From: a phage
DNA length: 44,039 bases
Reading direction: 5' to 3' (one strand)
NCBI GenBank assembly: GCA_030821775.1
Contig: GCA_030821775.1_4700.1
The position numbers and the translations under genes are program-made. The notes under the pieces were generated by a model. The model worked only from the letters and a program-made list of their open reading frames with translations, ran no database searches and was not told the DNA's origin. This document shows, one piece after another, positions 97 through 31,946 of this stretch. The first letter of the stretch is position 1; every line of letters begins with the position of its first letter.

Positions 97-1260
97 TCAG
101 CCGCCAGTACCGGTAGCTACCAGATCTTCAGCAGGCATGAGGGCAGCAGCGGCAGCACCTGCCGGAGCGGCATTCTTGACATACACAGCTTTGCGCTGTG
201 CACGGCTAAGAACTTGAGTGTGCTGTTCTCCATCAGCACTCACGGCACCACCATTAGATGTGTCACGCTTAGTTGTTACAACAGACACTGCTTCCCAGCG
301 ATCAGGGATTGCGCCTTCAGACATGAAAGTATCAATATAGTAGGTCTTCTCTTTCTTCTCATAGAAAATGTCACCTGTTAAATCAATGGAACGACCCACA
401 AGCAGAGCGTCAGATGTGAACAGTACAGCAATAGCGCCATTCATTTCTGCAATCGGGTCATAACGATAACCGTTGTCTTCATTGGAAAGCAGGTGATGTT
501 TCTGACCCGGAGAGAATTTAGGGAAGCGGTTAGACGGGATAACAGGGCAGTTGTAAGAAGACAGAACAAAGCCCTGAATGGTTGCACCAGACAGACTAAT
601 GGTGTAGGACTTATCAACAATGCGGTCTGCATCCCGCAGGCAGTTGAAGTATTTCCACGGCATCAGGATAGCTACATCAGAGATGTCTACTTCCTGCTCA
701 AGCTGCTGCTCCAGAGCAAATTCTACAGCCGCCATTACATACTGCGGGTTAGCCAGTGCTTCTGCTTCGTTGACCTCTACGTTGATAGAGAAGCCATGAC
801 CTTTAACACGTGGCGTATGACGTTTCTTAACAGTGTTGCGGATACCGCCAAGCAGCATCTGCTGAATCAGCATCTCGTCTTCCATCTTCTTAAGCTGCTT
901 GGCTTGGTTAGTAGCCAGCTTCGGCTTCAGGCTGTCAATGTCACCCTGTACATCGTGCAGGTGTGCAACGGTGTTACGAGCGATAACAGTGGCATCAATC
1001 ACCAACTGGTTTTTATCCGCCTGAGTAGAGGTTGCAGCCGGAGACTGACCCGGTGCCAGAACCTGCAACTCAGTTTCACCCAAGTATTTGTTGCTGACAG
1101 TGTTGGTGCCAGTAACGGTCTGAACATCGAAGTAGCTCATGATGTTCTCGCCTTTCAGGTACTGCTCATTCACCTTACCGTTAAACTTCTCAATGAGAAG
1201 ACTATCTACCTCACCAGAAGCGGAAATAGCAACGTTGGTCAGATTGTTCGGCGTAGACAT
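97..1260 (-). CDS. Major capsid protein (T7 gp10-like)
   Basis: 387-aa ORF with ATG and AAGGAG SD, directly after the scaffold gene, preceded by a phage promoter and followed by a terminator, as in T7-like phages. Confidence 0.8.
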   Translation of the reverse strand: MSTPNNLTNVAISASGEVDSLLIEKFNGKVNEQYLKGENIMSYFDVQTVTGTNTVSNKYLGETELQVLAPGQSPAATSTQADKNQLVIDATVIARNTVAHLHDVQGDIDSLKPKLATNQAKQLKKMEDEMLIQQMLLGGIRNTVKKRHTPRVKGHGFSINVEVNEAEALANPQYVMAAVEFALEQQLEQEVDISDVAILMPWKYFNCLRDADRIVDKSYTISLSGATIQGFVLSSYNCPVIPSNRFPKFSPGQKHHLLSNEDNGYRYDPIAEMNGAIAVLFTSDALLVGRSIDLTGDIFYEKKEKTYYIDTFMSEGAIPDRWEAVSVVTTKRDTSNGGAVSADGEQHTQVLSRAQRKAVYVKNAAPAGAAAAALMPAEDLVATGTGG

Positions 1261-1314
1261 ATAATAAAATCTCCTTATAAATCAAGTGGATATTTAGGGA
1301 GGCAATACCTCCTT

Positions 1315-1332
1315 CTATAGTGTCCCCTAAAT
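1315..1332 (-). promoter_or_regulatory. SP6-type phage promoter driving the capsid gene
   Basis: Plus strand CTATAGTGTCCCCTAAAT is the reverse complement of ATTTAGGGGACACTATAG, one mismatch from the SP6 consensus, between scaffold and capsid genes. Confidence 0.75.
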
Positions 1333-1336
1333 AGGG

Positions 1337-2254
1337 TTACAGGCCTTTAGCCATGCCAGCGCGACGGCGAGCATCCAGACGAGCCTGTGCCTCAGCCATA
1401 CCTTTACGGTCACTACCGAAGCGCTCACCCAGCTTGGAAATCTCACGAATGTACTGGTCACGGCTTAACGGGGAGTTATCGCCACCAGACGGCGCTGCCT
1501 GAGACGGCTCGATGAGGTTAGGCTTATCGTCGCCCTGTGCTGCCTTACGGCGACCTTCCAGTTCACGCACTGCGTACTGCTGTAGGTACTGGTTGCCAGA
1601 TTCCATGACAGCATTGAAGGCAGTCAGTTCGTCATCAGACAAGGTTTCAAGCGCCCACTCCTCAAGACGTGCCCATCCATCTTCCCCGCCGACTTCCTTA
1701 GAAATGTCAGTGAAGCGCTGGGCATTAGCTGCTCCCGCCTCTTTAGCTGCATTGGCTTCTTTCAGGAAGAATGCCTCGTTCTGTGCCTTGAGGCCAGAAA
1801 GGTAAGCATCTACTGCAAACTTGCCAAAGGCATCATACAGTTTCTGCTTGGTTTCATCGGACAGTTCAAACTTGCCATCTTTGGCATAGAGTTCCTTGGC
1901 TACCTGATTGGCATCAATGCCTTTCTCTTTAAGGCTATCAGTTACATCCTGCGGGATTTCTATTGTTACTTCATGTTCTCCGAAGAAGTATTGCACTTCC
2001 TCAGTGTCTGTCTTGGTGTCATCTGGCTTAGATTCACCATTCTCTCCGCCATTGTTTCCTTCTTCTGAAGGCTGTCCAGAATCTCCTCCTCTGGTGTCTT
2101 CAGTACGCTGTGCACCAGCATTGTCATCTTGTACATCAGCACCAGTGTCAGTAGAAACATCAGTAGTAGCATCAGTTGTTACCTCCTCAGTTGCTGCTAC
2201 GCTTGGCTCAGCAGTAGGGTGCGTAGTAGTTGGTTCATTGAATGAAAAGCTCAT
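1337..2254 (-). CDS. Capsid assembly (scaffolding) protein
   Basis: 305-aa acidic ORF between portal and capsid, start overlapping the portal stop (TAATG); size and position match T7 gp9. Confidence 0.7.
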   Translation of the reverse strand: MSFSFNEPTTTHPTAEPSVAATEEVTTDATTDVSTDTGADVQDDNAGAQRTEDTRGGDSGQPSEEGNNGGENGESKPDDTKTDTEEVQYFFGEHEVTIEIPQDVTDSLKEKGIDANQVAKELYAKDGKFELSDETKQKLYDAFGKFAVDAYLSGLKAQNEAFFLKEANAAKEAGAANAQRFTDISKEVGGEDGWARLEEWALETLSDDELTAFNAVMESGNQYLQQYAVRELEGRRKAAQGDDKPNLIEPSQAAPSGGDNSPLSRDQYIREISKLGERFGSDRKGMAEAQARLDARRRAGMAKGL

Positions 2255-3804
2255 TAGCCCTCCTGTAATCCTTGTTGAATGACATTAGGTACAGCCTTAG
2301 CCACACCTTCGTTAAGCATAGCCGCCTGCTGGTCCTCCATCGCCTGCTCAGCTTCCTTGCGTAGCTGCTCCTCAGTCTTGAGGAATGGGAGTTCTGCGGA
2401 AATCTGACCGCGTACCCAGTCCATATAGTCAGGCCAACTTATAGCTCTCTGTGCAGATTCAGGCCATGTCTGAGGCAGTGACATGTACTGTGCAAAGGTA
2501 GCCAGCTTGTCTAACTCAGCCATGCGGCCTAGCGCCTCAATACCTGTCACAATCACAGGGTCTACCAGTTCGTTAGTGAAAGAATCACCAGTCTCCAGCA
2601 AGCCCCACATTGCGATAGGTGTCTGCATGGTTACAGCGAATAGGGAGTACACGCCACCCATGTTCTGCTCAATCTCCAGCGCATCACGCTGAATCTCAAC
2701 GGCGGTCACACGTTCTGCATCACGACGAGTTAATGCTTCCATCATGAACACAGTACCAACGCGGCGAGTGTATACCTCAAGCACAGCACTGATTGGTGTC
2801 AGGTCTGCATACTTCCCAAGCTGTACGATGTGGATATCCTCCTCTACACCAGTGATAACCTCACCAGTGCCTGAGTTAACAAAGTGGTCAACATCTGTCT
2901 GAGCGCCGGGACGAATAAGGTACTTGATGTCAGCCATAAGTGCAGCGCCACGCGCCACAGCTTCTGACAGGAACTGGATAACGAACAGGTCGCCAGAGTA
3001 ATCCTCGGCAAGTGGACGGCCCCAATCTTCACCGTAAGAGCGCTTCCATGTCAGTGGAATGAAGGGTAGTTTCTCCTTCTTGATGCGATTCTCTTCTCCT
3101 ACAGGGATATCGTCAGCAGATTGCTTGATCTCCCAGAACCCATCGCCTTTGTACTTAGCGTGAGTGTACAGCTTAACGTTGTCCTCACCTTTGCACTTCT
3201 TGCCTTTCATCGCAACTTCTATAGCCATGCGTGTTGCATGGTCGAAGGTCTTCAAGGCTTTCTCTTGCAGGAGAATAATGTCCAGCAAGTCACCGTTAGT
3301 GTCACGGTTAACGACATAGTGGTGCATCGGGACGGCGCTAATCGCACCTTCCTTCGGCTTGTAAAGCAGGCAGCTACCAGCAACGATAAGGTGCTTAAAT
3401 GCCTCAACGATTGCCGGACGGAACTGGCGCTGCTCCAGTGATTTCATAGCATTAGTTTCAACGCGAGCAAAGATAGTAGCTAGCTGAGTCTTCTTCATAC
3501 CTCGCTTGGCAAGGATTTGTTCACCATTAACCGTAAGGTCTACACGGAAGAAGGAACGTTGTGCAGGGAACAACACCTGCGCCAGCTTGTTGGCTAAGTG
3601 ATTAGTCGCTTGAGCGCCTACACCTTGCCAGCCATTCTGTGAAGTGTTGTTGTCACCTGTATCGTTCATCAGGTATGGAAGTGTCAACTTAGCGTAGTGT
3701 TTAGCCCTGTCAAGGAATGGACTACGCTTAGTAGAAAACTTCTCCCACAGCTTAGGAATCTTCGAACGCTTGCCACCATACGACATGTTGGTGTCATTGC
3801 GCAT
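2254..3804 (-). CDS. Portal (head-tail connector) protein
   Basis: 516-aa ORF with AGGAG SD, immediately upstream of scaffold and capsid; size and synteny match T7 gp8. Confidence 0.8.
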   Translation of the reverse strand: MRNDTNMSYGGKRSKIPKLWEKFSTKRSPFLDRAKHYAKLTLPYLMNDTGDNNTSQNGWQGVGAQATNHLANKLAQVLFPAQRSFFRVDLTVNGEQILAKRGMKKTQLATIFARVETNAMKSLEQRQFRPAIVEAFKHLIVAGSCLLYKPKEGAISAVPMHHYVVNRDTNGDLLDIILLQEKALKTFDHATRMAIEVAMKGKKCKGEDNVKLYTHAKYKGDGFWEIKQSADDIPVGEENRIKKEKLPFIPLTWKRSYGEDWGRPLAEDYSGDLFVIQFLSEAVARGAALMADIKYLIRPGAQTDVDHFVNSGTGEVITGVEEDIHIVQLGKYADLTPISAVLEVYTRRVGTVFMMEALTRRDAERVTAVEIQRDALEIEQNMGGVYSLFAVTMQTPIAMWGLLETGDSFTNELVDPVIVTGIEALGRMAELDKLATFAQYMSLPQTWPESAQRAISWPDYMDWVRGQISAELPFLKTEEQLRKEAEQAMEDQQAAMLNEGVAKAVPNVIQQGLQEG

Positions 3805-4627: not shown

Positions 4628-4825
4628 TTAATCGTCGGTTTCTTCTTCGTCGTCACCGTAAAGCTCCTCGACTTTCTCTTTAATTGCCTCGATAGACAGG
4701 CCAAGCTCTTCGGCCTCTGCAAGAATAGTGTAAGGTGGAGTCATGCCGCATGAGTAACTTTCAAAGATAGCCTCTGCTACCTCAACGGCACGAGTTGCCT
4801 TCATGGAATCAAATACTTGTGTCAT
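4628..4825 (-). CDS. Small acidic hypothetical protein
   Basis: Track ORF 4628..4879 trimmed to the first ATG (MTQVFD...); C-terminus is acidic (GDDEEETDD); upstream of the GNAT gene. Confidence 0.35.
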   Translation of the reverse strand: MTQVFDSMKATRAVEVAEAIFESYSCGMTPPYTILAEAEELGLSIEAIKEKVEELYGDDEEETDD

Positions 4826-5243
4826 GTTTCCTCCATTTACCTGCGAGCACAAGGCCCACATATGAACGAGACATACCAAGTATATCGGAGATACGTTGTT
4901 GTGTGAGGCCTTCTTCTCTTAATTTAAATACTTTAGCTATAGTTTCATTATTAAATTTGCATACTCCAGATTTCTCTCCACTTGCAGTTCTTCCCTTACG
5001 CTGCCTGTCTTCCATGTTCTCTTTATGTGAACCTAATACAAGGTGTAAAGGGTTTATGCAGCGAGGATTGTCACAAGTGTGCATGATGACCTTGCCTTTT
5101 ATATCAGATAGACTGACATTATTATAAGAACAGTAAGCAGCACGGTGAGCAGGGGTTGTTTTACCTTCAAACTTCACAGAGCCATAACCTTTATGGTTTC
5201 CCTTTTGCCGATGATCAATACACATCAGGTACTTCCTTATCAT
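4809..5243 (-). CDS. HNH homing endonuclease with C-terminal HTH
   Basis: 144-aa ORF with HNH-type residues (GYG...H...CDNPRCINPLHL) and a C-terminal HTH (LTQQRISDILGMSRSYV); overlaps the 3' end of the ligase gene. Confidence 0.7.
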   Translation of the reverse strand: MIRKYLMCIDHRQKGNHKGYGSVKFEGKTTPAHRAAYCSYNNVSLSDIKGKVIMHTCDNPRCINPLHLVLGSHKENMEDRQRKGRTASGEKSGVCKFNNETIAKVFKLREEGLTQQRISDILGMSRSYVGLVLAGKWRKHDTSI

Positions 5244-6877: not shown

Positions 6878-7882
6878 CTTGCCAATCCAGCGACCTTCAC
6901 TGTTTGTCTGCATCGGGATGATCTGCGGTACACCATCGATGATTACCAGACAACCCAGCGCTGGCTTGTACTTAGATTCCCGACCATAGGAGAATGCACG
7001 TGAGCCTTCGTCAATCAGGCAGCCACCTTGCGCAGCCCAGTATTGCTCGTGGCTGTTACTGGCATACTCGATAGACATCTTGCCATGCAAGTGACCACAC
7101 ACAAGATTCATACGCTCGTGTGCTGCATCGGTCAGAACTGCACCTGCTGGCTGGTGTTTGAATGCAACCTGCTCGCCGTTCGGCAGTTCCAGAATATGCG
7201 TGTGTTGCCACTCCCAACGCTCTCCTCCTCCCTGCGGGAAGAATACCTCACGGTATGTACGCAGGTACTGTACAGGGATGCCATGAGAGTGTGCCTTGCG
7301 GAAGTGCATAGAGCCGTGGTTAGAGTGACACAGGCGCATCACAGGGAACATACGGTGTAGCTTCTCCATGAAGACACGAGCCTTCTCAAGTTCCATGCCA
7401 GCAGAGTCAAGGTTGGGATCTGAATCGTGGAATGACATAGCATGTTTGTCTGCTTCATCACCAAGGTGGACAACTGTGTCCGGCTTGAACCGTGCAGCTA
7501 CAGCAGCCAAGAACTCCAGAGTATCTTGATGCTCATAAGGTGCGTGAGTATCTGGGATCACCAGAATGCTTCGATGAGGCGAGTCAGGCAGAGGTTTAAC
7601 AGCCAGATCTTCATAGCGATCAGGGTTGCGCAGCTTGCGTTGCTCCTTAATACGTTTGTTCTCTGGAAGAAGGGATTGGTAGTTGTCGCCATTCTTCTTC
7701 TTGGTCTTGAATTGACCATGCCAGTATCGAGCGAGTTGGCGAGTGATCTTCTTACCAACCGGATGCGCAGACAGGATGTGCGCCATTTCATTGTAGTTAA
7801 CATTACCTTTCTCGTCGGTAGCTTGCTCGATTGCGTCAAGCACCTCGGAGTCTTTAAACAGGCTACGAAGTTTAGCCACCAT
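6872..7882 (-). CDS. Calcineurin-like metallophosphoesterase
   Basis: 336-aa ORF with metallophosphoesterase signature blocks (VIPDTHAPY, HLGDEAD, GHLHG) and an AAGGAGG SD. Confidence 0.7.
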   Translation of the reverse strand: MVAKLRSLFKDSEVLDAIEQATDEKGNVNYNEMAHILSAHPVGKKITRQLARYWHGQFKTKKKNGDNYQSLLPENKRIKEQRKLRNPDRYEDLAVKPLPDSPHRSILVIPDTHAPYEHQDTLEFLAAVAARFKPDTVVHLGDEADKHAMSFHDSDPNLDSAGMELEKARVFMEKLHRMFPVMRLCHSNHGSMHFRKAHSHGIPVQYLRTYREVFFPQGGGERWEWQHTHILELPNGEQVAFKHQPAGAVLTDAAHERMNLVCGHLHGKMSIEYASNSHEQYWAAQGGCLIDEGSRAFSYGRESKYKPALGCLVIIDGVPQIIPMQTNSEGRWIGKI

Positions 7883-8285
7883 TTGCCTCCTTCTTCTTAC
7901 GTGAGTATGCTAAGCGAGCCTTGCGGTTGCGAGCCTCGCGCTTCTCTGCCTCAGTCTGGTGCTTGTGATACAGCCTGTCAGTCTGAGGTTTCTGGTGTAA
8001 CTTCCAGTAGTTCAGAAGATTCTCAAGCCATTTGATTTGGTAATACTTGCTGTTACCAGCCTTACCATAGCCAGAGATAATACCCTTAATCTTGCCCTCT
8101 GCACCATTGCATCCTCGGCATACCACAGCACGGCAGAAGCCTGTGTCATGGTCATGGTCGAGTACACGGTTTATGGCAGTGACAGCTTTAAGACTGCCAC
8201 CACACAAAGGGCATTTGTAACCTTGTACCTCCATTAGCTCCTGCTTGTATGCAGAAACCTCTGAGGCTTTCAGCTTGATTGCCAT
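7872..8285 (-). CDS. Endonuclease VII-like Holliday junction resolvase
   Basis: 137-aa ORF with an N-terminal CPLCGG zinc motif, DHDHD and CRGCN, the arrangement characteristic of T4 endonuclease VII-family resolvases. Confidence 0.65.
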   Translation of the reverse strand: MAIKLKASEVSAYKQELMEVQGYKCPLCGGSLKAVTAINRVLDHDHDTGFCRAVVCRGCNGAEGKIKGIISGYGKAGNSKYYQIKWLENLLNYWKLHQKPQTDRLYHKHQTEAEKREARNRKARLAYSRKKKEANGG

Positions 8286-9301
8286 AATTCCTTATCGCCT
8301 CCCCACAAGATAGGGTTCTTATCGGCTCGCCATATGTCACCTTTAAACCTTGCCATGTGAGCTAGGCGACCACATTCAAGCATCAGGTCAAAGGCTTTGC
8401 CAACCAGATAACCACCTCGGTAGTTCTTAATCTTAACTTGTCCATGTCCGAACTTAGCCTTGTAAGCACCAAGCACTGCCATGTACAACTCTTTCTCTGT
8501 CTTACAACCCTTGAGAAGATCATAGGCATACTTAGCACCACGTCCAGGTATGCCAGCGTAGTTATCAATATCATCACCGATAATCATCTGTGCATAGTGG
8601 AACATGAGGCCAGCACCTTTTAGGTCTTTGACTTGACCATTAGCCTTACGGCGTAACTCAAGCCAACCCATAGGCTCTACCCACTTCTTCTCTTGACCCG
8701 GCTGAAGGTGCCAACCGGGTACAATCATCAAATCCTTATCCAAGGAAACGATGCAAGTATCAGAGAATGCTTTATGCTCTGGACTACCGATAGGGAATTC
8801 GTTACCTGTATCTTGCTGGAAGCGGCGGTGGCTGTCCCATTGTGCAATACTCATGAGGTCATCTGCTTCTTCTCCATCTGCCAAGATTGCACCATGAACC
8901 TCTAAAAGATGCTCTCGCAATTCATAGAAGAATGGAGGTTTCTCGGTCTTACGTTGACCCTTATAAGGTTTGGTGAAGGCTAGGCGAACACGGAAGTTAG
9001 CTTCTGATTTCGTCATGAATAACTTAGCTGCATCACACTCTGCTGCATACACCCAAGAGTTGAGCAATGAGTTCACACGGTCACACGCTTGCTTACACTC
9101 AGGTGTATCTTTGATTGATGGGACTTGCCCTGACTTAACACGAGTTGTGGCTCGTACATAAGTCATGTCACTGATAGTATACCCGACGATGTAGGATAAC
9201 ATGTCAGCGTCTATTAAAGCAATTCGATTACCTTCAGTTGGCCACAGGATGAAATTATTGTCTTCCGACACTGTAGCTCCGAAGTAGAAGTTTGGTCGCA
9301 T
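8270..9301 (-). CDS. 5'-3' exonuclease (FEN / PIN-domain family)
   Basis: Contains IALIDADMLSY and GEEADDLMS acidic motifs typical of 5' nucleases. Track ORF extends to 9358, but the ATG at 9301 has an AAGGAG SD. Confidence 0.75.
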   Translation of the reverse strand: MRPNFYFGATVSEDNNFILWPTEGNRIALIDADMLSYIVGYTISDMTYVRATTRVKSGQVPSIKDTPECKQACDRVNSLLNSWVYAAECDAAKLFMTKSEANFRVRLAFTKPYKGQRKTEKPPFFYELREHLLEVHGAILADGEEADDLMSIAQWDSHRRFQQDTGNEFPIGSPEHKAFSDTCIVSLDKDLMIVPGWHLQPGQEKKWVEPMGWLELRRKANGQVKDLKGAGLMFHYAQMIIGDDIDNYAGIPGRGAKYAYDLLKGCKTEKELYMAVLGAYKAKFGHGQVKIKNYRGGYLVGKAFDLMLECGRLAHMARFKGDIWRADKNPILWGGDKELWQSS

Positions 9302-9486
9302 GTAGGCCACTCCTTTAAGAAGCAGGACACCGCATCGTGGAGGTTCTGTATTAACCAATAGTCATCCCACTGCCTCCCCTCCACCAGCTTTTCACCCGTT
9401 CGGTAATCATAGGCTATCCCCACGTACTGTCTGGTGATTTCATCGTAGCGAGTGCCCATTCTAATTCGTGATTCAATAGTCGGCAT
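9214..9486 (-). CDS. Hypothetical protein (uncertain)
   Basis: 90-aa ORF overlapping the exonuclease start by tens of nt in another frame; no recognisable motif. Confidence 0.25.
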   Translation of the reverse strand: MPTIESRIRMGTRYDEITRQYVGIAYDYRTGEKLVEGRQWDDYWLIQNLHDAVSCFLKEWPTCDQTSTSELQCRKTIISSCGQLKVIELL

Positions 9487-9551
9487 AATTCATTCTCCAA
9501 TAACTATTACGCAAAAGACCCTGCCTACACTAAGGCAGACAGGGGCATCAA

Positions 9552-9989
9552 TTATTCGACGTGACTCCACGCCTTGCGACTTCTAACCTTGTTAATCAAA
9601 TCTTTAGAGACACCTAGATTTTCTGCTAATGTCTTTGCAGATAGACTACAAGAACGTATGTACTTAACCTTATCAACATCTAACTTCTGGCTAGACCTTT
9701 TGGTTCTAATAGAAACATCAATCATGTTCTGGCTACGAGAACCCCAGCTTAAGTGATCAGGGTTACAGTACATCTTATTGTCGCAAGAATGAAGTACATC
9801 TTTTAAATCAGACTTGCCATGAAACACTTCACAGCTAACTCGGTGTACTGTTTCATTTCTACCTCCACCTGTAGCTATGTTTCCATAGCCATGAGAGCCA
9901 ACAGACTTCTGCCATATCCAGCACCCGTTACTGTCAACTCCCACGTTATCCTTGATCTTCTCTATGAGTGCATCGCGGCTTAGTCTCAT
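9552..9989 (-). CDS. HNH homing endonuclease
   Basis: 145-aa ORF with the canonical HNH_3-type pattern (GCWIW...GYG...HR...C.N..C.NPDHL). Confidence 0.8.
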   Translation of the reverse strand: MRLSRDALIEKIKDNVGVDSNGCWIWQKSVGSHGYGNIATGGGRNETVHRVSCEVFHGKSDLKDVLHSCDNKMYCNPDHLSWGSRSQNMIDVSIRTKRSSQKLDVDKVKYIRSCSLSAKTLAENLGVSKDLINKVRSRKAWSHVE

Positions 9990-9994
9990 TTAAC

Positions 9995-10369
9995 TCAAAA
10001 TTCCTCCTCTTCGCTTACCTGAACTTCCGGTGCAGCTACTTCTTCTACTGCCTGAGCTTCAGCTTCTTCAGCAGCCTTAACTTCTTTCACCGGCTTACCA
10101 GCAGCAATCCAATCCAGATACTCAGCTACGATATTAGCCTTACCGATCTGAGCTTTGTCAGCCTGCTCAGGGAAGCAAGCACGAGCGAACTCCAGACCAG
10201 CAGCGAAGTTACCCATGCTGTCAATCTTAGCCTGAGCTCCTTCACGAGTATCATAAGCCTTAGTGCCAGCTACCAGTTTGTTGGCTTCATCGACGATAAC
10301 GAAAGACTCAACGGATACCAGATCAGCACCTTTAACAACACGGTTTACGATAGTTTCGATAGTGAACAT
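9995..10369 (-). CDS. Hypothetical protein with acidic C-terminal tail ending in Phe
   Basis: Track ORF 9995..10399; probable start at the ATG at 10369 (AAGGAG SD). C-terminus ...VQVSEEEEF resembles the acidic aromatic tails of SSB-type proteins. Confidence 0.5.
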   Translation of the reverse strand: MFTIETIVNRVVKGADLVSVESFVIVDEANKLVAGTKAYDTREGAQAKIDSMGNFAAGLEFARACFPEQADKAQIGKANIVAEYLDWIAAGKPVKEVKAAEEAEAQAVEEVAAPEVQVSEEEEF

Positions 10370-10423
10370 ATTTAAATTCTCCTTTGTTAATTGTGGCATT
10401 ATCGCCGATTAAAATTCTCCCTT

Positions 10424-10441
10424 CTATAGTGTCCCCTAAAT
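10424..10441 (-). promoter_or_regulatory. SP6-type phage promoter
   Basis: Plus CTATAGTGTCCCCTAAAT (one mismatch to consensus) in the intergenic gap. Confidence 0.75.
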
Positions 10442-10456
10442 AGAGGACACCAATTT

Positions 10457-10472
10457 GTCCAACGCGTTGGAC
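10457..10472. repeat. Conserved palindrome, copy P1 (GTCCAACGCGTTGGAC)
   Basis: Perfect inverted repeat, member of the 8-copy TGTCCAAC-NN-GTTGGACA family; lies between the stop of gene 10473..10691 and the promoter at 10424. Confidence 0.8.
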
Positions 10473-10691
10473 TTACAGAACTGTGCTCACCTGCGCAATG
10501 TCGTGCGCCGGAAGTGACACGCCGTGGCGTTTACCGGTCGCGGGGTCACTGTAGTTCACCACATGCTGACCCTCGCGCCAGATATAGTGCAGGTTTGCGT
10601 ATGTATCCCCTTCAGAGAATGAGTGAAAAGTGTTACCGCCAAGCGTTGTGATGCCTTTCTTGCAGTGCAGGGTTACAATTTGTACTTTCAT
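10473..10691 (-). CDS. Hypothetical protein
   Basis: 72-aa ORF with ATG and AGGAGG SD. Confidence 0.5.
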   Translation of the reverse strand: MKVQIVTLHCKKGITTLGGNTFHSFSEGDTYANLHYIWREGQHVVNYSDPATGKRHGVSLPAHDIAQVSTVL

Positions 10692-10702
10692 TTAACCTCC
10701 TA

Positions 10703-11509
10703 TTAATATTCCGCGTCCTCGTCCATTTCTGGGGCTTCTACGTTCGTAGCTTCAGGTACTTCCTGCGGGACAGAAGCACCTGTGTCCAAAGGTTTGCGGT
10801 CTTCTGGAGTCGCGTCACTGTCTTTCTTCTTGGCCTTCTTCCACTCAGCATCGGCAGCGCGAGCCTCGGCGATAATGGCTTCAACATGAGAACCAGCAAC
10901 GGACAGGTTCTTACCGCGTGGTGTTTCGTTCAGCAGGTACTGACGGACAAGATGAGCAGGAATGCTGTCGATGATTCCGCGGGTCAGCTTGTCGAAGGTG
11001 ATGTGGCCTGTCATGGTTAGACCTTCTTCTTCCACCTGAGCCAGCACCAGCTTCTTGAGTTTATCAGGCATACCGCCGAAGCCTTTCCAGTTAACATACT
11101 TGAAAGTGCCATCTTCGTTCTTGCCACCCTTATCATCGCCAACCATGCTAACAGTCATGCACTCGCCGATGAAGTCATCGAAGCCACCAAGCAATTCTTT
11201 AGGGTCAACTGCATTCAGGAATTTGGTCAGCGTTGCCTTGTCACCAGACTTGAGCGGCACAGCCATCCACTGTTCCATGCGAGAACCATCCTCGTTCTTG
11301 TCACCGTCACCCATCAGGATAACCTTAACAAGAACAAAGTTAGCAGGCTTCTTCACCTCGGTAGTGTTACCTTTCTTGAAGATGTCTTGGAAGGAACCAA
11401 CGTGAATGATGCCAGAGATAACTGCCTCGTGATCACCAACTTCGGGATTCTTAAACACACCACCAGTAGCAGCAGCAACCTCAGCACCAAAATCAAAATT
11501 ACGAGCCAT
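10703..11509 (-). CDS. Putative ssDNA-binding protein (acidic C-terminal tail)
   Basis: Track ORF 10703..11557; ATG at 11509 has an AGGAGG SD. C-terminus ...EAPEMDEDAEY is acidic with a terminal aromatic residue, as in T7 gp2.5 and bacterial SSB; functional call is inference. Confidence 0.4.
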   Translation of the reverse strand: MARNFDFGAEVAAATGGVFKNPEVGDHEAVISGIIHVGSFQDIFKKGNTTEVKKPANFVLVKVILMGDGDKNEDGSRMEQWMAVPLKSGDKATLTKFLNAVDPKELLGGFDDFIGECMTVSMVGDDKGGKNEDGTFKYVNWKGFGGMPDKLKKLVLAQVEEEGLTMTGHITFDKLTRGIIDSIPAHLVRQYLLNETPRGKNLSVAGSHVEAIIAEARAADAEWKKAKKKDSDATPEDRKPLDTGASVPQEVPEATNVEAPEMDEDAEY

Positions 11510-11702
11510 TAATTTATTCCTCCTGTTGTTTGTTAGCTTTGTACTGAGCACAAGCATGTACTCACTAGAAAGCCCGATACTATATCGGGTTGTGCAAGAT
11601 GCACAAGAGGTTCAACACTTTACAATCATAGGACGTGCTTAGGATTTACGCTCACTGAGCACCTTGGATTTACTGTCTCTGACAAACCCACGTCCTATTG
11701 TT

Positions 11703-11720
11703 CTATAGTGTCACCTAATT
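11703..11720 (-). promoter_or_regulatory. SP6-type phage promoter (variant)
   Basis: Plus CTATAGTGTCACCTAATT; overlaps the stop of gene 11719..12096. Confidence 0.65.
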
Positions 11721-12096
11721 ATTTGGTCAGATTGTCTAACTCCATTTCCAGCATAACAATCTCTTTCTTCAGACTGTCAGATGCAGCTTGATGTACAATG
11801 GCAATGGATGCCTTGCGCTCTTCAAAGTCTGCCTTCAGGTTGTCACGCTCCTGCTGGTGACGTGCCATCATCTCTTCTACCTCTTTGACTTGACGCTCAT
11901 TCAGATCATCACGAGATGCATAGTAGCTATTGTGGCAGTCAATCATTTGAGAACTACGGTGTTCTTCAACTTCAACTTGTTCTGCCTGTACTGCTTCGAT
12001 GCGACCCTTGATTGCTTCAATAGCCTTGTACTTAAACTTATTAGCCAGACCACGAAAGTATTGAGCTACGAATACCAGAGTAGTTACCATTGACAT
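11719..12096 (-). CDS. Hypothetical coiled-coil protein
   Basis: 125-aa ORF with AGGAG SD; charged heptad-like sequence. Confidence 0.5.
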   Translation of the reverse strand: MSMVTTLVFVAQYFRGLANKFKYKAIEAIKGRIEAVQAEQVEVEEHRSSQMIDCHNSYYASRDDLNERQVKEVEEMMARHQQERDNLKADFEERKASIAIVHQAASDSLKKEIVMLEMELDNLTK

Positions 12097-16098: not shown

Positions 16099-18090
16099 CT
16101 AGAACTCCTGCTCTTCTTCGAAGTTACCTTGTTCTATAGTGTCCCCTAAATCAGCAGGCACCTCTTGCTGCTTAGGTACACCTGTATCAAAGCTCTTGGT
16201 TCGTGCTTGTGGTTCCCTCAATCTACCGGTAGCAAGGTCTCCTTTAAGCATAACCTTAGTTCCTGTGAAGATACCTTGGTCACGGTCTTTGACACATGAG
16301 ATGTACGTGGTAGTCCTTTCATCAAGCGTTTCAGCTCTTGTGTTACGCTCAATCCCCAATGCGTAAGATGCCCAGAATCCGATAGCTCCTGAGCCTCGGA
16401 AGTCAGAAAGGATAACCTCGCCACCTTCCTCGTGTTGGGTGCGGTTCCCCGCAGGACGTGTAAGGTGTGATACAAGGAATATAGTAACTGGGTGTCGGTC
16501 TTTGATAGTACCAATCCGCTTGACGCATTCATCAAGTGCACCAACCTTCCCACCATATGCTCTTTCATCTAATTTAATCCCAGTTAAGTTATCAATAAAG
16601 ATATTCTGAATCCCCATAGCTTCAAACTCTAAGCAGGTCTGCTCAATCTTCTCCATTGAGTAGTCACCTTCGAGGTCAGCTACAAAGAACTTACCCGTAT
16701 CAGCCACGTAGTCGATAGCTTCAGCCGCTTCCTCATCGGTATAGTCCAGCACCTCGCGGTAGCCATCCTCTTGCGGGTCGTTGGTTGGCGGCAACTCAAT
16801 GCGCTTATCAATCCACTTCCCGATGAATGCACGGGCAACCTTCTTGGTTGGGTCTTCTGTAGAGATAATGCCTACAGACTCGCCGTGCTCTTCGATGAGG
16901 TGCTTAACCACTTCACGAAGGAACTCAGTCTTACCTACACCGGAGCCAGCACCGACGATGATTAGCTGGTGCTTACGGATACCAAGCGTTACCTTGTTCA
17001 GCTTAGGCCAAGGCCACGACAGCCCTTCTTCTGGACGTGCCTGCTTGAGTTCGTCACGCATAGACGCAACGGACTTAATCTGGCTACCGAAGACTTCCTC
17101 AGAAGACTTGGCATTAAACCAAGCATCGACAAACTCTTTGGCCTTACCCGCCATCAAAGACTTGTTAGCATCCTTGCAACCACTTGGATACTCAAGGATG
17201 TAGGATTTGCCGGGAAACAGGCGAGCCGCTTGTTGGTTCTGCTTCTGCCCTACCTCGTCGCCATCGAATCCCCAGATAATCTTCTTGAATTGGGCGATGT
17301 GTTCACGGTTCTGCACAATCTCTTCAAGGCAAGATTCACCTTTGTTAACAGACCACACATGGTAAGGTTGCCCTTCCCACTTAGTACCCTTGGCAGAATC
17401 AAGGAGCATTTGCTGGGCTGCTAATGCATCCAGTTCACCACCCACGATAAGCAAGATATCTTTTCTTCTTCCCTTGTCCAACGTGTTGGACAGGGTATTC
17501 ATACCGAAAAGATCTTGTGTACCAAAGAGTTTACCTAGGTGTCCGAACTTAAAATCCTTCGGCAACGTCCGGCATTTTGCTCCAACAAGCACCCCCTTTT
17601 CATATCGTGGATAATAGTGACGGTTGACTCTTCCCTCTTCATCGTGTCCAACGCGCACATCGTACATTGCTGCGATGTCACCTCGAATGTGACGGGATAC
17701 AAGGTTCTTACGCTTAAGCGTGAGGAACCATTCAACATCAAGTTTCCACTCTGTTTCTTGGTCTGCCCTTTCTTGCTCATTCATAACCTCCCAACGGTCT
17801 TTCATACGCATACCACCAAGGGCGATGGCGCGTAGTTTAGGGTCGCTTATCTTCCCTTCTTTCTCCATCTCTTTGAATTGAGAAGGTGTGTATTTGATGT
17901 TGCCGGTAATAGGCAACTCGGTTATTTCGATGCCACCTTCCGGCTTATGGTAATAAGGTCTGCCATTATCATGGAAGTGACCACGGTTACAGTAGCCAGC
18001 ACCATCCTCGAATATCATAAGGTGGTTGCCTGATTTATCGTGTCCATTCTTCTGGCATTGAGGGCACGGAATGTTATTAATAATAGCCAT
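16099..18090 (-). CDS. DNA primase/helicase (T7 gp4-like)
   Basis: 663-aa ORF with an N-terminal Cys4 zinc ribbon (CPQC...C..GH) and a Walker A P-loop (GAGSGVGKTE) in the C-terminal helicase half. Confidence 0.9.
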   Translation of the reverse strand: MAIINNIPCPQCQKNGHDKSGNHLMIFEDGAGYCNRGHFHDNGRPYYHKPEGGIEITELPITGNIKYTPSQFKEMEKEGKISDPKLRAIALGGMRMKDRWEVMNEQERADQETEWKLDVEWFLTLKRKNLVSRHIRGDIAAMYDVRVGHDEEGRVNRHYYPRYEKGVLVGAKCRTLPKDFKFGHLGKLFGTQDLFGMNTLSNTLDKGRRKDILLIVGGELDALAAQQMLLDSAKGTKWEGQPYHVWSVNKGESCLEEIVQNREHIAQFKKIIWGFDGDEVGQKQNQQAARLFPGKSYILEYPSGCKDANKSLMAGKAKEFVDAWFNAKSSEEVFGSQIKSVASMRDELKQARPEEGLSWPWPKLNKVTLGIRKHQLIIVGAGSGVGKTEFLREVVKHLIEEHGESVGIISTEDPTKKVARAFIGKWIDKRIELPPTNDPQEDGYREVLDYTDEEAAEAIDYVADTGKFFVADLEGDYSMEKIEQTCLEFEAMGIQNIFIDNLTGIKLDERAYGGKVGALDECVKRIGTIKDRHPVTIFLVSHLTRPAGNRTQHEEGGEVILSDFRGSGAIGFWASYALGIERNTRAETLDERTTTYISCVKDRDQGIFTGTKVMLKGDLATGRLREPQARTKSFDTGVPKQQEVPADLGDTIEQGNFEEEQEF
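16134..16151 (-). promoter_or_regulatory. SP6-type phage promoter inside the 3' end of the primase/helicase gene
   Basis: Plus CTATAGTGTCCCCTAAAT located within the last ~17 codons of the gene. Confidence 0.7.
17475..17492. repeat. Conserved palindrome, copy P4, inside the primase/helicase coding sequence
   Basis: Perfect palindrome TGTCCAACGTGTTGGACA; encodes ...TLSNTLDKG... about 200 codons into the gene. Confidence 0.8.
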
Positions 18091-18542: not shown

Positions 18543-21161
18543 TTAAGCAAAACAGTAGTCGCTATCCATGATTTCGTTCAGGTCAAAGCTGCCTTGCTCT
18601 GGCACTTCGATGCCAGTATCAACCATCCAGCGGTCTTCGTGCTCATCAAGCAGTTTCTGCAAGGCGTTCCCTTCTGAGTACATGCCAACCATTTCTGATT
18701 TCAGTGCATGACGCAGCTTAGCGGTATTGTCTGCGTGAGTACCAAAGGAGTCGTGAATCACTGCAATACTCGTCACCCCTTCATCAACCAGATGACAGAC
18801 GGTCAGAATCAGGTGGCTTGCGTCATGACCATGAACGAAGTTAGGCGCTGCTGCTCCCATCATAGCGGTTTCATCCACTACATCAGTTTCAACTTGCAGA
18901 CTCATTTTGATGTCACCCATCAGGCAGGTGCGCACACGGAGCATCTCGGTCGCCATAATTTTCTGCTTCAGGATGAAGCCAGTTGGCAGTGGGTATTCCA
19001 ACCCTTCATTGCGCTTAGCTGCAAAGCGAGCCAACTTGCGAATCATCTGCATCGCCACTACCGGAGCCTTAACAACCTCAGAGATGGAAGGCCAGATGAG
19101 CGCCGTCATGTAGTTGTATGCTTTAGCCGGAGTAAGTTCACCGTTATCATCAAACGGGTGCACACGGTTCGCTGCGCGCCCTTCTGCCACCGCCATTTGT
19201 GCCTCTTTCTCTTCCAAATCGACGATATAGTCAATCACAGAATCACGGCAGGTGATGCGAGTAGAGCCGTAAGGCAGCGTCATTACTGGTTTCTTGGTCA
19301 GGCCACGGGTAATGCCTACGCTATCCCATGCGCTAGCCATAGCTCGAAGGTCAGAGCCGGAGAGGGTTAGGCTTCCGCTCGTGAAGGTCGTCCCTTCTTC
19401 GGCATCCATATAGAGCACATTTTTAGAAATGACCACCTGTGCAACCGCGCCGTAAATATCCTGCGGAGCGTCGGACGGCTTCAGGTTTACAGCTTTAGCG
19501 CCCACCTCATCGCGTAACATAGCGGAGTAATGCTGAATGCCGGAGCAAGAGCCATCTTGGTGGACTGGCAGGTGAGTTTCGAAATCGGCCTGCGTCCCTT
19601 TATCCAGTGCATCCAGATAGCGGGAGTATTCGAAGCACCAAGCAAGAAATTGGTACGGCTCATCCGCTTTAGCCCACTGTGTGAAAGTCAGCGGGTCGGC
19701 TGCAATGTCACGGCACATATCTTGGAAATCACCGTCTAACACGTTGGACTGACGTACGTCAAAGGTCTTCTTATCCCAACCCCACAGGTTAGCGCCCAGC
19801 ACGAGGAACCATTTAAGAGCTCCAGCGCTGTCAATCTTCCGCCCCTCTGTGAAGCGTAACAGAGATTTACCCAGGTCGTTAGACTGTGGGGACAGGGTGG
19901 AAGATTGAGCGTAAACACGGCTGCGGCTGTCCATCACGTAGACGAAGTAGATGGATTCAAAGGCGCTATATTTGCGAGCCTGTCCAATCATGCGAACCAC
20001 GGCGGCAGACTTGGAGCCGCGCTTTGTTTCGGCGGTGTATAGTCGCGCACACTCCCCTTTCCAGTTAATGAACGCCTGCCATTGCTCTTCTGATAGCATT
20101 TCTTTCAATTCACGACCCCGAAGATGTTGGAACTCAACCGGAACAGGGTTAGCAGGCTTGTTTTCCTTGTCAATTAGTGGCTTAAAGGACGGCACACCAT
20201 AGCCCAAATCAAGGCGGATGACGTCTTCAGCTACCGCTAAAACCTCTTTGTTAACCTGCCATTTGGTGTTTTGTAAGGCGTTAATAGCCTTGTACACCTT
20301 AGGCATTTGCTTAACAGTAAGTTTGCGAACATGCTCACGGTCGCCCTTAACCAGACGCACACGACTAGCCACCTTCTCAGTATGGAAGCCACCATTAAAC
20401 GGGGTTTTCCAAGGACGAGGAGGAACAACGCAAGGAGCATAGGCTGGGGCCAGTTGTGCTACGTGCTCTTTAAAGGCTGCAATCCATTGGCCTACAGTTT
20501 CGGAGGTTTGCAGGTAATAAATAGTTTTACCGCCAAATGAGCGCATAGCGCGAACGAACACAGGCTCACCGTTGTAGAATACGCTAGCTTCTAGTATTTC
20601 CAGCAGGGTAGTACCAATCTGCAATTGTGTATCTTTAGGCCATGCCTCCCAGCGGTCAAAGTCAGCGTCTTTAGCGGCTACAGACTTCTCAGCCACTACA
20701 GCTACATTGTGAGCGTGACGGTATGACTTGGTGCGGCTAGCCTTAAGCGATTTCTTCACTTTCTCGAAGTATTTCGCGGCGTGGCCTTCCAGCTTGCTGA
20801 AGCGCACTTGGTCTTCGATGCGCTCGGCAATGCTCATAGAAATGGCCTGCAATGTTACATCAGTGTTCAGCATATCCATAACTACCTTCATGGTAATATA
20901 GGCTGCCACCTCGTTTTCTACACACTGTAAGAAGGCTAGGGCACGAGGAGCGCGGCCTTTCTTGCCTTCGTATTCTTCTTTGTAAGCCTGAATGCCTTCA
21001 GCCATAGGCGCGATTAATTCAGACAGCAGGCGGCGATTCCATGCCGTATCTGATTCATTACCCGATGCTATTTGGCGCTGTTGGTCTGCCTCAAAGCGAC
21101 GGATCCCGCCATTAAACATTTCTTCTTCAAGCTGAAGCTGGATAGCGTGTAAGTCCTGCAT
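18543..21161 (-). CDS. Single-subunit DNA-dependent RNA polymerase, SP6-type
   Basis: 872-aa ORF with AGGAG SD; N-terminus [32 protein letters not shown]... and overall sequence match my recollection of SP6 RNAP almost residue for residue; consistent with the SP6-type promoters across the genome. Confidence 0.95.
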
Positions 21162-30031: not shown

Positions 30032-30049
30032 CTATAGTGTCCCCTAATT
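30032..30049 (-). promoter_or_regulatory. SP6-type phage promoter (variant) at the 3' end of the large terminase gene
   Basis: Plus CTATAGTGTCCCCTAATT overlapping the terminase stop codon. Confidence 0.6.
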
Positions 30050-31946
30050 ACCAAGTCCTTGATATTCTTGAAGAAAGAGTATTTCGAGACTTGACCTGCA
30101 TCGTGGGTGCATTTCCGTAGACACGGCGCTGCATTGCCACTGACGTATTCACCTGTTTTCGATAACCGTGGTCTTGTCCTGTGAAGAACTCACGGCGACG
30201 GCGAGGGTCATGCATCATCTCAAGATAATCGCGCATCTCCTGCGCTCTGAGGCGATTTATCCGGTTAACCTCGTCATAGTCTATCTGAGAAGTTAATTGC
30301 CGTATAGCGCCGTACAGTGCGTCTAAGCGGTCATCATGTCGCAGGCACCCTTTCTCCAGAGTGATGTTCGAGATTTGAGCAAACAGGCTGTAGCTCATCC
30401 GAACCTCCAGAGGGTAGTGCTGGATGCTGTCAATGTCCTGCTTGATCATCTCAGCGTTGAAGATGATGCGGTGCGCGGAGAACAGCGGTTCAAGCGTCTC
30501 GATGATACGAACCTCTTTCTGACCGTGTGCGTAGTCTTCTTTCAACTCGGCAGGCCACTCACGTTCGAAGTATGGCTTAATTACCGCCTCAAACGCACCG
30601 TGACCGAAGTTCTTCTCTATGAAGACCTCTTTTACCCCTGCGGCCTTAGCCTCGCGCACAATGCGACTGAGCGCGTTCTCGGAGTATCCGCCAGGCACAC
30701 CGAAGCATTTATAGACGTAGATGAACGTCCCCAACAGGAATACGATAGCCACGCCAGTTTCGTCGCCGTTCTTACCGCCACCAGCGGGGTCAATGTACAT
30801 GACGCGGCGCTGGATTGGTCGCCACTCATACGGGCGTGCAACCGGACGGTACAGGTAGTCTGTAGGCTTGTTACCGAAGCGCGGAGCGTCACCAATCAAG
30901 TTGAGAGTGTCGTTGCTCCAAGTCGGCATCTCTGGGACAACATCTGTACCAAAGCTCATGCAGATAAGCTGGTTCAGGCGCAGGGGGTAACGGTCTGCGT
31001 CCATCAGGCGCGTGTTCAGCATGAACTGTAGCTGGAACTTAGCAGTACCTTGTGAGATTTCCTTCTCAATCAGCTTCTCGTCATCGTACATTTCAGGGCA
31101 AGTTGGAGCGCCCTGAGTCCCGTCGATGCCATAACCTGAGCGCAGTGACGGGTCTTCCATCATATCTTGGCGAATCATCGGTGCGAGGAAGTCGCCGTAG
31201 CAAGCCTCCTGCTCTAACGTTGGATACCGTCCGGGCCAGATTCGAATCTGATAGCCACGCGCTGGTAAGTTGTTGTAGATGGAGTTCACGCTCTGAGGCG
31301 TACCAAGGTAGATGATGTCACCGAACTGGTTGATTGATTCAAACTCTTTGGTCAGGTCTTCCAGCAAGGCACGGCCTGCTGCGGTACGGCTGTTCTGCAA
31401 CGATTCAACGTCATCAGCCAAGATGATGTCTGCACGAGCACCCTGCATACCCGCCTCGATAGAGTAGCAGGCCACGGACGGAGACTTGTCACTACCACGT
31501 AATGTGTAGTGAATCTCAAAGCCTTTGATTGAAGCCTTGTCACCTGCGTAGATGTCAGGCAACATGAACTCCAAGAAGTCCAGACCACGGAAGATTTTGA
31601 TAACCCAGCCTGCGATTTCCTCTGCACGCTTGGCTGTCTGCGACACAATCATGATACGCTTGTGTGGTTCATGGATGATACGAAATACAGAGTAGATTGC
31701 AGCGATTGTGGTCTTAGCCTGTCCACGCTGTGCCTCTACCATTCGATATTTGTTCCCACTGAATAGGAACTTTAAGATATCCGCTTGTACCCGATTCAAA
31801 TCAGGGTTGCCAGTGATTAATGTATTGATTACAACCTGAGCGAATGACAGAAGTCCCTGCACGGTATACGGGAATGTTTGTTGTAACTCGTGCAGCAACT
31901 CCCAACGGGCAAGGGCTTCTGCCTGAGATTCCCTTGCTTTTGCCAT
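30048..31946 (-). CDS. Terminase large subunit
   Basis: 632-aa ORF with AAGGAGG SD; start overlaps the small-subunit stop (TAATG); ATPase and nuclease-sized domains; position as T7 gp19. Confidence 0.85.
   Translation of the reverse strand: MAKARESQAEALARWELLHELQQTFPYTVQGLLSFAQVVINTLITGNPDLNRVQADILKFLFSGNKYRMVEAQRGQAKTTIAAIYSVFRIIHEPHKRIMIVSQTAKRAEEIAGWVIKIFRGLDFLEFMLPDIYAGDKASIKGFEIHYTLRGSDKSPSVACYSIEAGMQGARADIILADDVESLQNSRTAAGRALLEDLTKEFESINQFGDIIYLGTPQSVNSIYNNLPARGYQIRIWPGRYPTLEQEACYGDFLAPMIRQDMMEDPSLRSGYGIDGTQGAPTCPEMYDDEKLIEKEISQGTAKFQLQFMLNTRLMDADRYPLRLNQLICMSFGTDVVPEMPTWSNDTLNLIGDAPRFGNKPTDYLYRPVARPYEWRPIQRRVMYIDPAGGGKNGDETGVAIVFLLGTFIYVYKCFGVPGGYSENALSRIVREAKAAGVKEVFIEKNFGHGAFEAVIKPYFEREWPAELKEDYAHGQKEVRIIETLEPLFSAHRIIFNAEMIKQDIDSIQHYPLEVRMSYSLFAQISNITLEKGCLRHDDRLDALYGAIRQLTSQIDYDEVNRINRLRAQEMRDYLEMMHDPRRRREFFTGQDHGYRKQVNTSVAMQRRVYGNAPTMQVKSRNTLSSRISRTW

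Follow-up and report, generated by a model that had tools for sequence, protein, structure and literature searches.

The HNH gene and its insertion site

The window, i.e., the whole 44,039-nt stretch of phage DNA analyzed here (GenBank assembly GCA_030821775.1, contig GCA_030821775.1_4700.1), carries on its minus strand an open reading frame (ORF) at 9552..9989, which runs from ATG to TAA and encodes 145 amino acids with HNH_3 and helix-turn-helix (HTH) parts of the T7 gp2.8 family type. An earlier note on this DNA had described it as a second HNH homing endonuclease, likely mobile and variably present, between the exonuclease and single-stranded DNA-binding protein (SSB)-like genes. The order on the minus strand is as follows: an OB-fold SSB-like gp16 homologue, g17, g18, the HNH ORF, g19, and the exonuclease. 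The ORF does lie between the two genes named but is adjacent to neither, with g18 upstream and g19 downstream; an OB-fold SSB-like gene is indeed present two genes further up, but the immediate neighbor gp18, which has an acidic tail, is unassigned as an SSB. Judging from nucleotide similarity, the window is an SP6/K1-5-like phage genome. Its region 8000..12000 matched 108 phage records (80-90% identity), of which almost all are SP6/K1-5-like Molineuxvirinae (Escherichia, Salmonella, Klebsiella, Citrobacter, and Proteus), and the first 25 kb was ~83% identical to the best Vectrevirus records.

The presence of an HNH endonuclease in an intact ORF was confirmed. The ORF matched Pfam HNH_3 (PF13392) with 30.2 bits against a gathering cutoff of 24.8 (E 3.5e-7) and nine HNH/endonuclease families in the PHROG search (best E 1.2e-24), and tblastn found its relatives in 847 phage records; therefore, it is not a chance ORF. 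Its G+C content was 41.6%, compared with 47.5% for the window. An alignment of 41 sequences indicated that the family-invariant residues C23, H67, C69, N76, P77, H79, L80, G83, and N88 are kept, and the general-base His and the metal-binding Asn of HNH_3/His-Me-finger nucleases are present in the beta-beta-alpha core. The "canonical HNH pattern" noted earlier holds for all these residues but fails at position 74, where the invariant Cys is Tyr. In the AlphaFold2 (AF2) model built from the same alignment (pLDDT 90.8), beta hairpins occupy the N-terminal part, strands 64-67 and 80-83 form the beta-beta-alpha core together with helix 85-95, and a flexible linker leads to a three-helix HTH at 105-136. 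A phmmer search of PDB with the single ORF sequence gave no match; the family profile matched I-HmuI over the full length (E 1.7e-4) and I-PpoI with E 1.8e-3. Both the domain and the predicted fold support an assignment to the His-Me-finger homing endonuclease type represented by I-PpoI and I-HmuI.

The boundaries of the insertion were defined by comparison with the empty sites of PSK8, 101117UKE2, SP6, CrRp3, and SE29. The inserted cassette comprises 443 nt (9555..9997, minus strand; boundary ambiguous by 1 nt), namely TGA GTTAA and the 435-nt HNH coding sequence. It is located between the last sense codon of gene 18 and the original TAA of that gene, upstream of a conserved terminator-like element (9509..9544, minus strand), a 10-bp hairpin with a U-run that stands immediately 3' of the cassette and is identical in empty and occupied alleles. 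The cassette brings a new TGA for gene 18, and the old TAA (9552..9554) serves as the HNH stop. In the empty alleles of PSK8, 101117UKE2, and SP6, the gene-18 end GA(A/G)TTT TAA TTGATG is directly followed by the hairpin CCCTGTCTGCCTTAGTGTAGGCAGGG and the U-run, and the SP6- or PSK8-type empty site contains GAAGAGTTTTAATTGATGCCCTGTCTGCC; CrRp3 and SE29 deviate only in a few bases after TAA (TTAATG and TTAACATG). The window allele reads GAATTT TGA GTTAA ATG...(HNH)...GAA TAA TTGATG C-hairpin. The corresponding Klebsiella alleles are GAGTTC TAA TAAGCG when empty (Kpp-61 and pKP-M186-2.1) and GAATTT TGA GTTAA ATG...AAG TAA TAAGCG when occupied (IME184 and VR702), so that the right junction retains the sequence of its own lineage in both Escherichia-type and Klebsiella-type backgrounds. 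The genes on either side of the ORF are complete, and no interrupted gene is seen at the empty site, a situation that does not correspond to a group I intron (intron RNA structure was not searched for).

The gene-18 homologue, whose 3' end is the insertion site, occupies 9995..10369 on the minus strand, with an alternative start possible at 10399. It belongs to PHROG 4429 (function unknown) and ends in ...SEEEEF, with E120, E122, and F124 invariant. An SP6-type promoter without mismatches lies directly upstream of it (10420..10441, minus strand), one of seven in the window, where none is expected by chance. Because of this promoter and the hairpin just downstream, the HNH ORF is placed in a short promoter-gene 18-HNH-hairpin unit, and the promoter presumably drives both genes. 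The HNH ATG is located 5 nt past the gene-18 stop and has no Shine-Dalgarno sequence at a usable distance, which suggests translational coupling to gene 18. No RNA hairpin was found over the HNH start codon (folding z-score +1.2).

In K1-5 (L003, about 1934..2050) and eight IMG/VR loci (L020, L021, L024-L027, L032, and L034), a 58-nt spacer occurs exactly at the cassette site. It opens with the three stop codons in frame (TGA TAA TAG) and closes with ...CATC TAA TG ahead of the hairpin. The spacer is not detectably an HNH remnant, as its local alignment to the HNH gene scored no higher than shuffled sequences did. The leader just past the gene-18 promoter (about 10405..10420 in the window; also in the empty alleles of PSK8, 101117UKE2, and K1-5) reads GA(A/G)AATTTTAAT and resembles the gene-18 end plus stop GAAGAATTTTAATTG of the empty alleles. 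The two may form a short direct repeat flanking gene 18; chance likeness is also possible.

Distribution, probable spread, and decay

The variable presence of the HNH gene was borne out by a presence/absence survey across relatives, nearly all of which lack it and keep a clean empty site. Of 50,697 phage records, only three, those of IME184, vB_KpnP_HY, and KpnP_VR702, contained the HNH ORF DNA in full length. The flanks were found in 108-121 records, with the K1-5 empty-site region matching 121, and the ORF was absent from ~118 of these 121. Among the 19 IMG/VR contigs with the exact hairpin, one contained the HNH gene, ten were empty, and eight had the 58-nt spacer of the K1-5/K1E type. Metagenomic copies at the identical site were retrieved from the protein database as loci L011 and L012 (both 93% amino acid identity), L013 (87%), and L014-L016.

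The mobility proposed for the gene agrees with its occurrence at one site, its relationships discordant with those of the flanks, and the broken state of some copies. The insertion site is common to the window, IME184, VR702, L011, L013, and L014, and in L014 it is occupied though the flanks are only 68-72% identical. In its flanks, the window resembles L013 most (exonuclease, 93.8%; gene 18, 92.7%; g17, 85.8%), whereas the window HNH gene is closest to L011 (94.7%), which is only 78-82% identical in the flanks, or 65-82% across g17, g18, and the exonuclease, with g16 at 87%. In a sliding comparison, the 5' half of the HNH gene showed 95-100% identity to L011 and 65-72% to L013, and the 3' half showed 92-98% identity to L013; the HNH gene itself is therefore recombinant. 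The VR702 copy is broken by two 1-nt deletions (frameshifts), and the L014-L016 copy has W82stop together with N71V. Every pairwise comparison of copies, those with the prematurely terminated L014 copy included, gave a ratio of nonsynonymous to synonymous substitution rates (dN/dS) of 0.05-0.20, and the HNH protein has therefore been under selection. Taken together at the sequence level, sporadic presence, discordance, and decay are the standard signature of a homing endonuclease gene (HEG), i.e., invasion, lateral spread, and decay.

The window contains another HNH_3 plus HTH ORF (4809..5243, minus strand; 144 amino acids), 27% identical to that at 9552..9989 and situated directly after the ligase gene, so that the latter was rightly counted as the second. 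Its DNA was matched in 0 of 134 related phage records, in which only the flanks matched, and it is by this comparison a second sporadic insertion. Further HNH or NUMOD4 genes were found in relatives, at 1004..1471 and 4713..5174 in L011/L012, at 715..1143 and 5459..5896 in L038 (NTNC80A), and at 4716..5153 in L002 (VR702). They belong to the same replication module and are located after the DNA polymerase gene, before gp16, and between the exonuclease and endonuclease VII genes. From these positions, the replication module appears as a general hot spot for HNH-type insertions.

Probable homing endonuclease gene and alternative explanations

Among the closest known counterparts is T7 gp2.8 (NP_041971), a clear homologue that is 38% identical to the HNH ORF product over 132 residues (BLASTP, E 4e-23). 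It has the same size and the same HNH_3 plus HTH arrangement, including the "CC" pair before NPxHL, although it has Cys where the window copy has Tyr74. Like the window ORF, T7 gene 2.8 directly follows the stop codon of a replisome gene that is promoter-proximal and encodes an acidic tail ending in Phe (gene 2.5: GAC TTC TAA GTG), and T3 shows the empty site (GAC TTC TAATG). The host genes differ, with T7 gene 2.8 behind the SSB gene 2.5 and the window ORF behind the SP6-group gene 18 rather than next to an SSB gene. We know of no published target or activity for gp2.8, and none was found in a literature search. I-HmuI (PDB 1U3E), the intron-encoded HNH nicking endonuclease of Bacillus phage SPO1, shares the module order of N-terminal beta DNA-binding region, beta-beta-alpha-metal nuclease, linker, and C-terminal HTH, but it is only about 19% identical, and the window ORF is free-standing. 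At the positions of the family residues Cys69 and Cys74, I-HmuI has Lys75 and Asn80 and thus, by sequence, no Cys/His cluster. The motif of I-PpoI (PDB 1A73, His-Cys box) aligned with the family as H-x-C-x4-C-x-N-P-x-H-L...N; however, I-PpoI is a eukaryotic, intron-encoded homodimer making double-strand cuts and has no HTH, and the window protein has no Cys matching I-PpoI Cys105. The free-standing seg/mob HEGs of T4-like phages resemble the window gene in their intergenic insertion beside conserved DNA-metabolism genes and in their sporadic distribution; they spread with co-conversion of flanks. They differ in belonging partly to other nuclease families (GIY-YIG for seg) and to another phage group, and T4 HEGs usually cut in the neighboring gene, not at a split insertion site.

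According to these data, the HNH ORF is best explained, with a probability of about 0.8, as a free-standing HEG of the T7 gene 2.8 family encoding a monomeric HNH_3 nuclease in which the DNA-binding beta region is N-terminal and the HTH is C-terminal. Translationally coupled to gene 18, the protein would be made at a low level. When a relative with the empty site infects the same cell, the enzyme would bind the junction of the gene-18 tail codons, the TAA, and the hairpin and nick or cut there; the phage exonuclease and recombination machinery would then repair the break with the HEG-bearing genome as the template, by which the cassette would be copied into the site. The carrier would be protected because its recognition sequence is split by the insertion. 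Several points weigh against this explanation. Cleavage, nicking, and homing are predictions, and the target is derived solely from the insertion point. Evidence for left-flank co-conversion is thin, being limited to the last codons GAATTT in IME184 and VR702 versus GAGTTC in the two empty Klebsiella phages. Carriers and non-carriers have an identical hairpin block; therefore, self-immunity must be assumed to come from the splitting of the site. Finally, Tyr74 stands in place of a Cys found in 58 of 58 homologues, and the window copy may consequently be inactive.

The last point leads to the most serious alternative, in which the window copy is a dead or crippled nuclease, i.e., a recently immobilized passenger with an intact ORF that is unable to home. 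Codon 74 (9768..9770, minus strand) is TAC (Tyr), compared with TGC in L011. The position is Cys in all 58 database homologues, in 40 of the 41 aligned sequences, and in T7 gp2.8, which makes Tyr74 unique to the window copy; positions 74-75 in homologues are CC, CV, CI, CF, or CM. Profile alignment to I-PpoI paired C74 with C105 and the neighboring motif residues as H67=H98, C69=C100, H79=H110, and N88=N119. In I-PpoI, we take C41, C100, C105, and H110 to hold the structural zinc, H98 to be the general base, and N119 to bind the catalytic metal; the pairing of C23 with C41, a position outside the aligned stretch, is our assumption. Three members of the putative structural cluster (C23, C69, and H79) are present in the window protein, and the change of Cys74 to Tyr would remove the fourth zinc ligand. 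Residue 73 is also changed, in the window lineage only, and broken copies are known in relatives. On the other hand, the ORF is otherwise intact, the catalytic His67 and Asn88 are retained, Cys75 might substitute as a ligand, and the pairwise dN/dS against the nearest copy remains at 0.20; the AF2 model also has high confidence, but AF2 is blind to metal loss. The window protein therefore appears to keep its catalytic residues without one predicted zinc ligand, and its nuclease activity is uncertain because Tyr74 replaces an otherwise invariant Cys aligned with I-PpoI Cys105. The copy may be weakened or dead as a nuclease, i.e., at the beginning of the cycle in which such elements usually invade, decay, and are lost. 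We regard an outright loss of homing ability in this copy as a substantial possibility, though not the favored one.

It is considerably less probable that the HNH protein is kept for its benefit to the phage, either by cutting competing relatives in mixed infection or by binding DNA breaks and blunting host defence without catalysis. Purifying selection on the ORF and the intact HTH and N-terminal DNA-binding parts are consistent with such a role, and HNH homing endonucleases have been reported to attenuate GAPS4 even when catalytically dead (preprint, bioRxiv 10.1101/2025.09.07.674715). The test there made use of gp3.8 of T7 and of a T7 mutant from which genes 2.8, 3.8, and 7.7 were missing; gene 2.8 is regarded in the preprint as one of the three homing endonuclease genes of T7, and its deletion did not impair viability (bioRxiv 10.1101/2025.09.07.674715). 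However, since the HNH ORF is missing from about 97% of close relatives and broken copies occur among them, a selfish element fits better than a useful gene. A packaging-associated HNH protein acting with the terminase, like HK97 gp74, is highly improbable, as the likeness is limited to HNH superfamily membership, while the terminase gene (30048..31946) lies about 20 kb off, the neighbors of the ORF are replication genes, and most relatives are viable phages without it.

As an HEG, the window gene belongs to an already known kind of element and is ordinary in type. HEGs are routine in phages of the T7 supergroup, where they are widely noted as variable extras, and genome papers routinely mention variable HNH genes in T7-like phages. 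Its site identifies a hot spot of recombination in SP6/K1-5-like phages, a group employed for therapy and capsule typing. It also provides a ready-made pair of empty and occupied alleles for an enzyme of the T7 gp2.8 type, a family for which no published target was found. Two details were singled out in this otherwise ordinary element, namely, the Tyr74 lesion and the tail-following pattern of insertion.

Acidic-tail genes and other features of the replication module

To describe this pattern, insertion sites were compared within a clade whose members are 45-64% identical to the window ORF. T7 gene 2.8 starts directly past the stop of gene 2.5 (SSB), whose product ends in ...EADEDGDF. Clade members in Patroon, L121, L122, L123, PHB19, and ZCEC02 follow SBB_T7 genes with the product ends ...DEDEDF, ...GDYDF, ...TEGDF, ...DEDGDF, ...SDGDF, and ...GDYDF. 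Those in Vectrevirus NTNC80A (...EMDEDSEY) and L119 (...MNSDDEF) follow the gp16 homologue, a site that is empty in the window at 10692..10705, and those of the window group follow gp18 (...SEEEEF). The three kinds of host gene (T7 gp2.5, gp16, and gp18) have no detectable sequence homology to one another, and the product of each has an acidic tail with a final Phe or Tyr; hhalign against the T7 SSB detected no homology (probability 0.1% for gp16 and 0.3% for gp18). Only three of about 41 genes in the window (helicase, gp16, and gp18) have such ends, and the chance of three independent sites all lying behind genes of this kind is approximately (3/41)^2 once the first site is given (~0.005), a weak estimate from few independent events.

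The acidic Phe-terminated tails of T7 gp2.5 and gp4 bind DNA polymerase, and this protein-protein contact, which keeps the tail peptide constant, would do the same for its coding DNA. It is tentatively suggested, as a doubtful reading of these sites, that the gp2.8-like clade is tied to DNA encoding an acidic tail, a terminal Phe/Tyr, and a stop codon rather than to one gene. Tail-coding DNA could serve as a part of the target or as microhomology for ectopic recombination, and the element would then hop between genes sharing only the tail. The carrier genome itself keeps other tail sequences (the gp16 site and the helicase), which speaks against tail recognition as such; therefore, the specificity must also include downstream bases. 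If the suggestion were true, selfish nucleases would find new homes through a short coding motif common to otherwise unrelated replisome genes. An association with acidic tails across the whole HNH_3 family was rejected, as essentially none of 79 IMG/VR loci with members 25-40% identical showed it (by crude ORF calling), and the HNH gene of Salmonella phage PRF-SP1 (41% identical) sits elsewhere, not behind an acidic tail. As far as the compared loci indicate, the association is confined to the close clade and T7 gp2.8. The supposition that occupied alleles always use TGA proved false in general, since T7 and PHB19 keep TAA.

The gp16 homologue (10703..11509, minus strand) has no Pfam family, belongs to a PHROG without an assigned function, and carries a conserved acidic tail whose last residue is Phe or Tyr (...EMDEDAEY in the window). 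It models as an OB-fold resembling PrgE, RPA, and Cdc13 and is probably an unannotated SSB of the SP6-group phages. The OB-fold was seen only in the fold search; phmmer of gp16 and gp18 against PDB gave no match, and a literature search on an SP6-group SSB returned nothing usable. The primase-helicase gene (16099..18090, minus strand) encodes an acidic tail with a terminal Phe (...NFEEEQEF), as in T7 gp4, and its last codons contain an SP6-type promoter (16130..16151).

Downstream of the cassette, the gene-19 homologue (9214..9486, minus strand; PHROG 10319) overlaps the start of the 5'-3' exonuclease gene (8270..9301, minus strand), and an Endonuclease_7 gene was identified by Pfam at 7872..8285. 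The other genes of the window are likewise on the minus strand and include, by Pfam, those for T7-type RNA polymerase, DnaB-like helicase, family A DNA polymerase, ligase, terminase, and portal protein. Compared with the K1-5 map, the window order looks circularly permuted and reverse-complemented (portal, 2254..3804; terminase, 30048..31946; RNA polymerase, 18543..21161). A block of ~80 nt (9470..9544) comprising the hairpin, a ribosome-binding site, and gene-19 codons 1-6 is 88-98% conserved in SP6-like phages of six host genera and is better conserved than the adjacent coding DNA. The gene-19 body (9310..9470) is hypervariable, with 26-47% identity even to L013, despite the 94% identical exonuclease.
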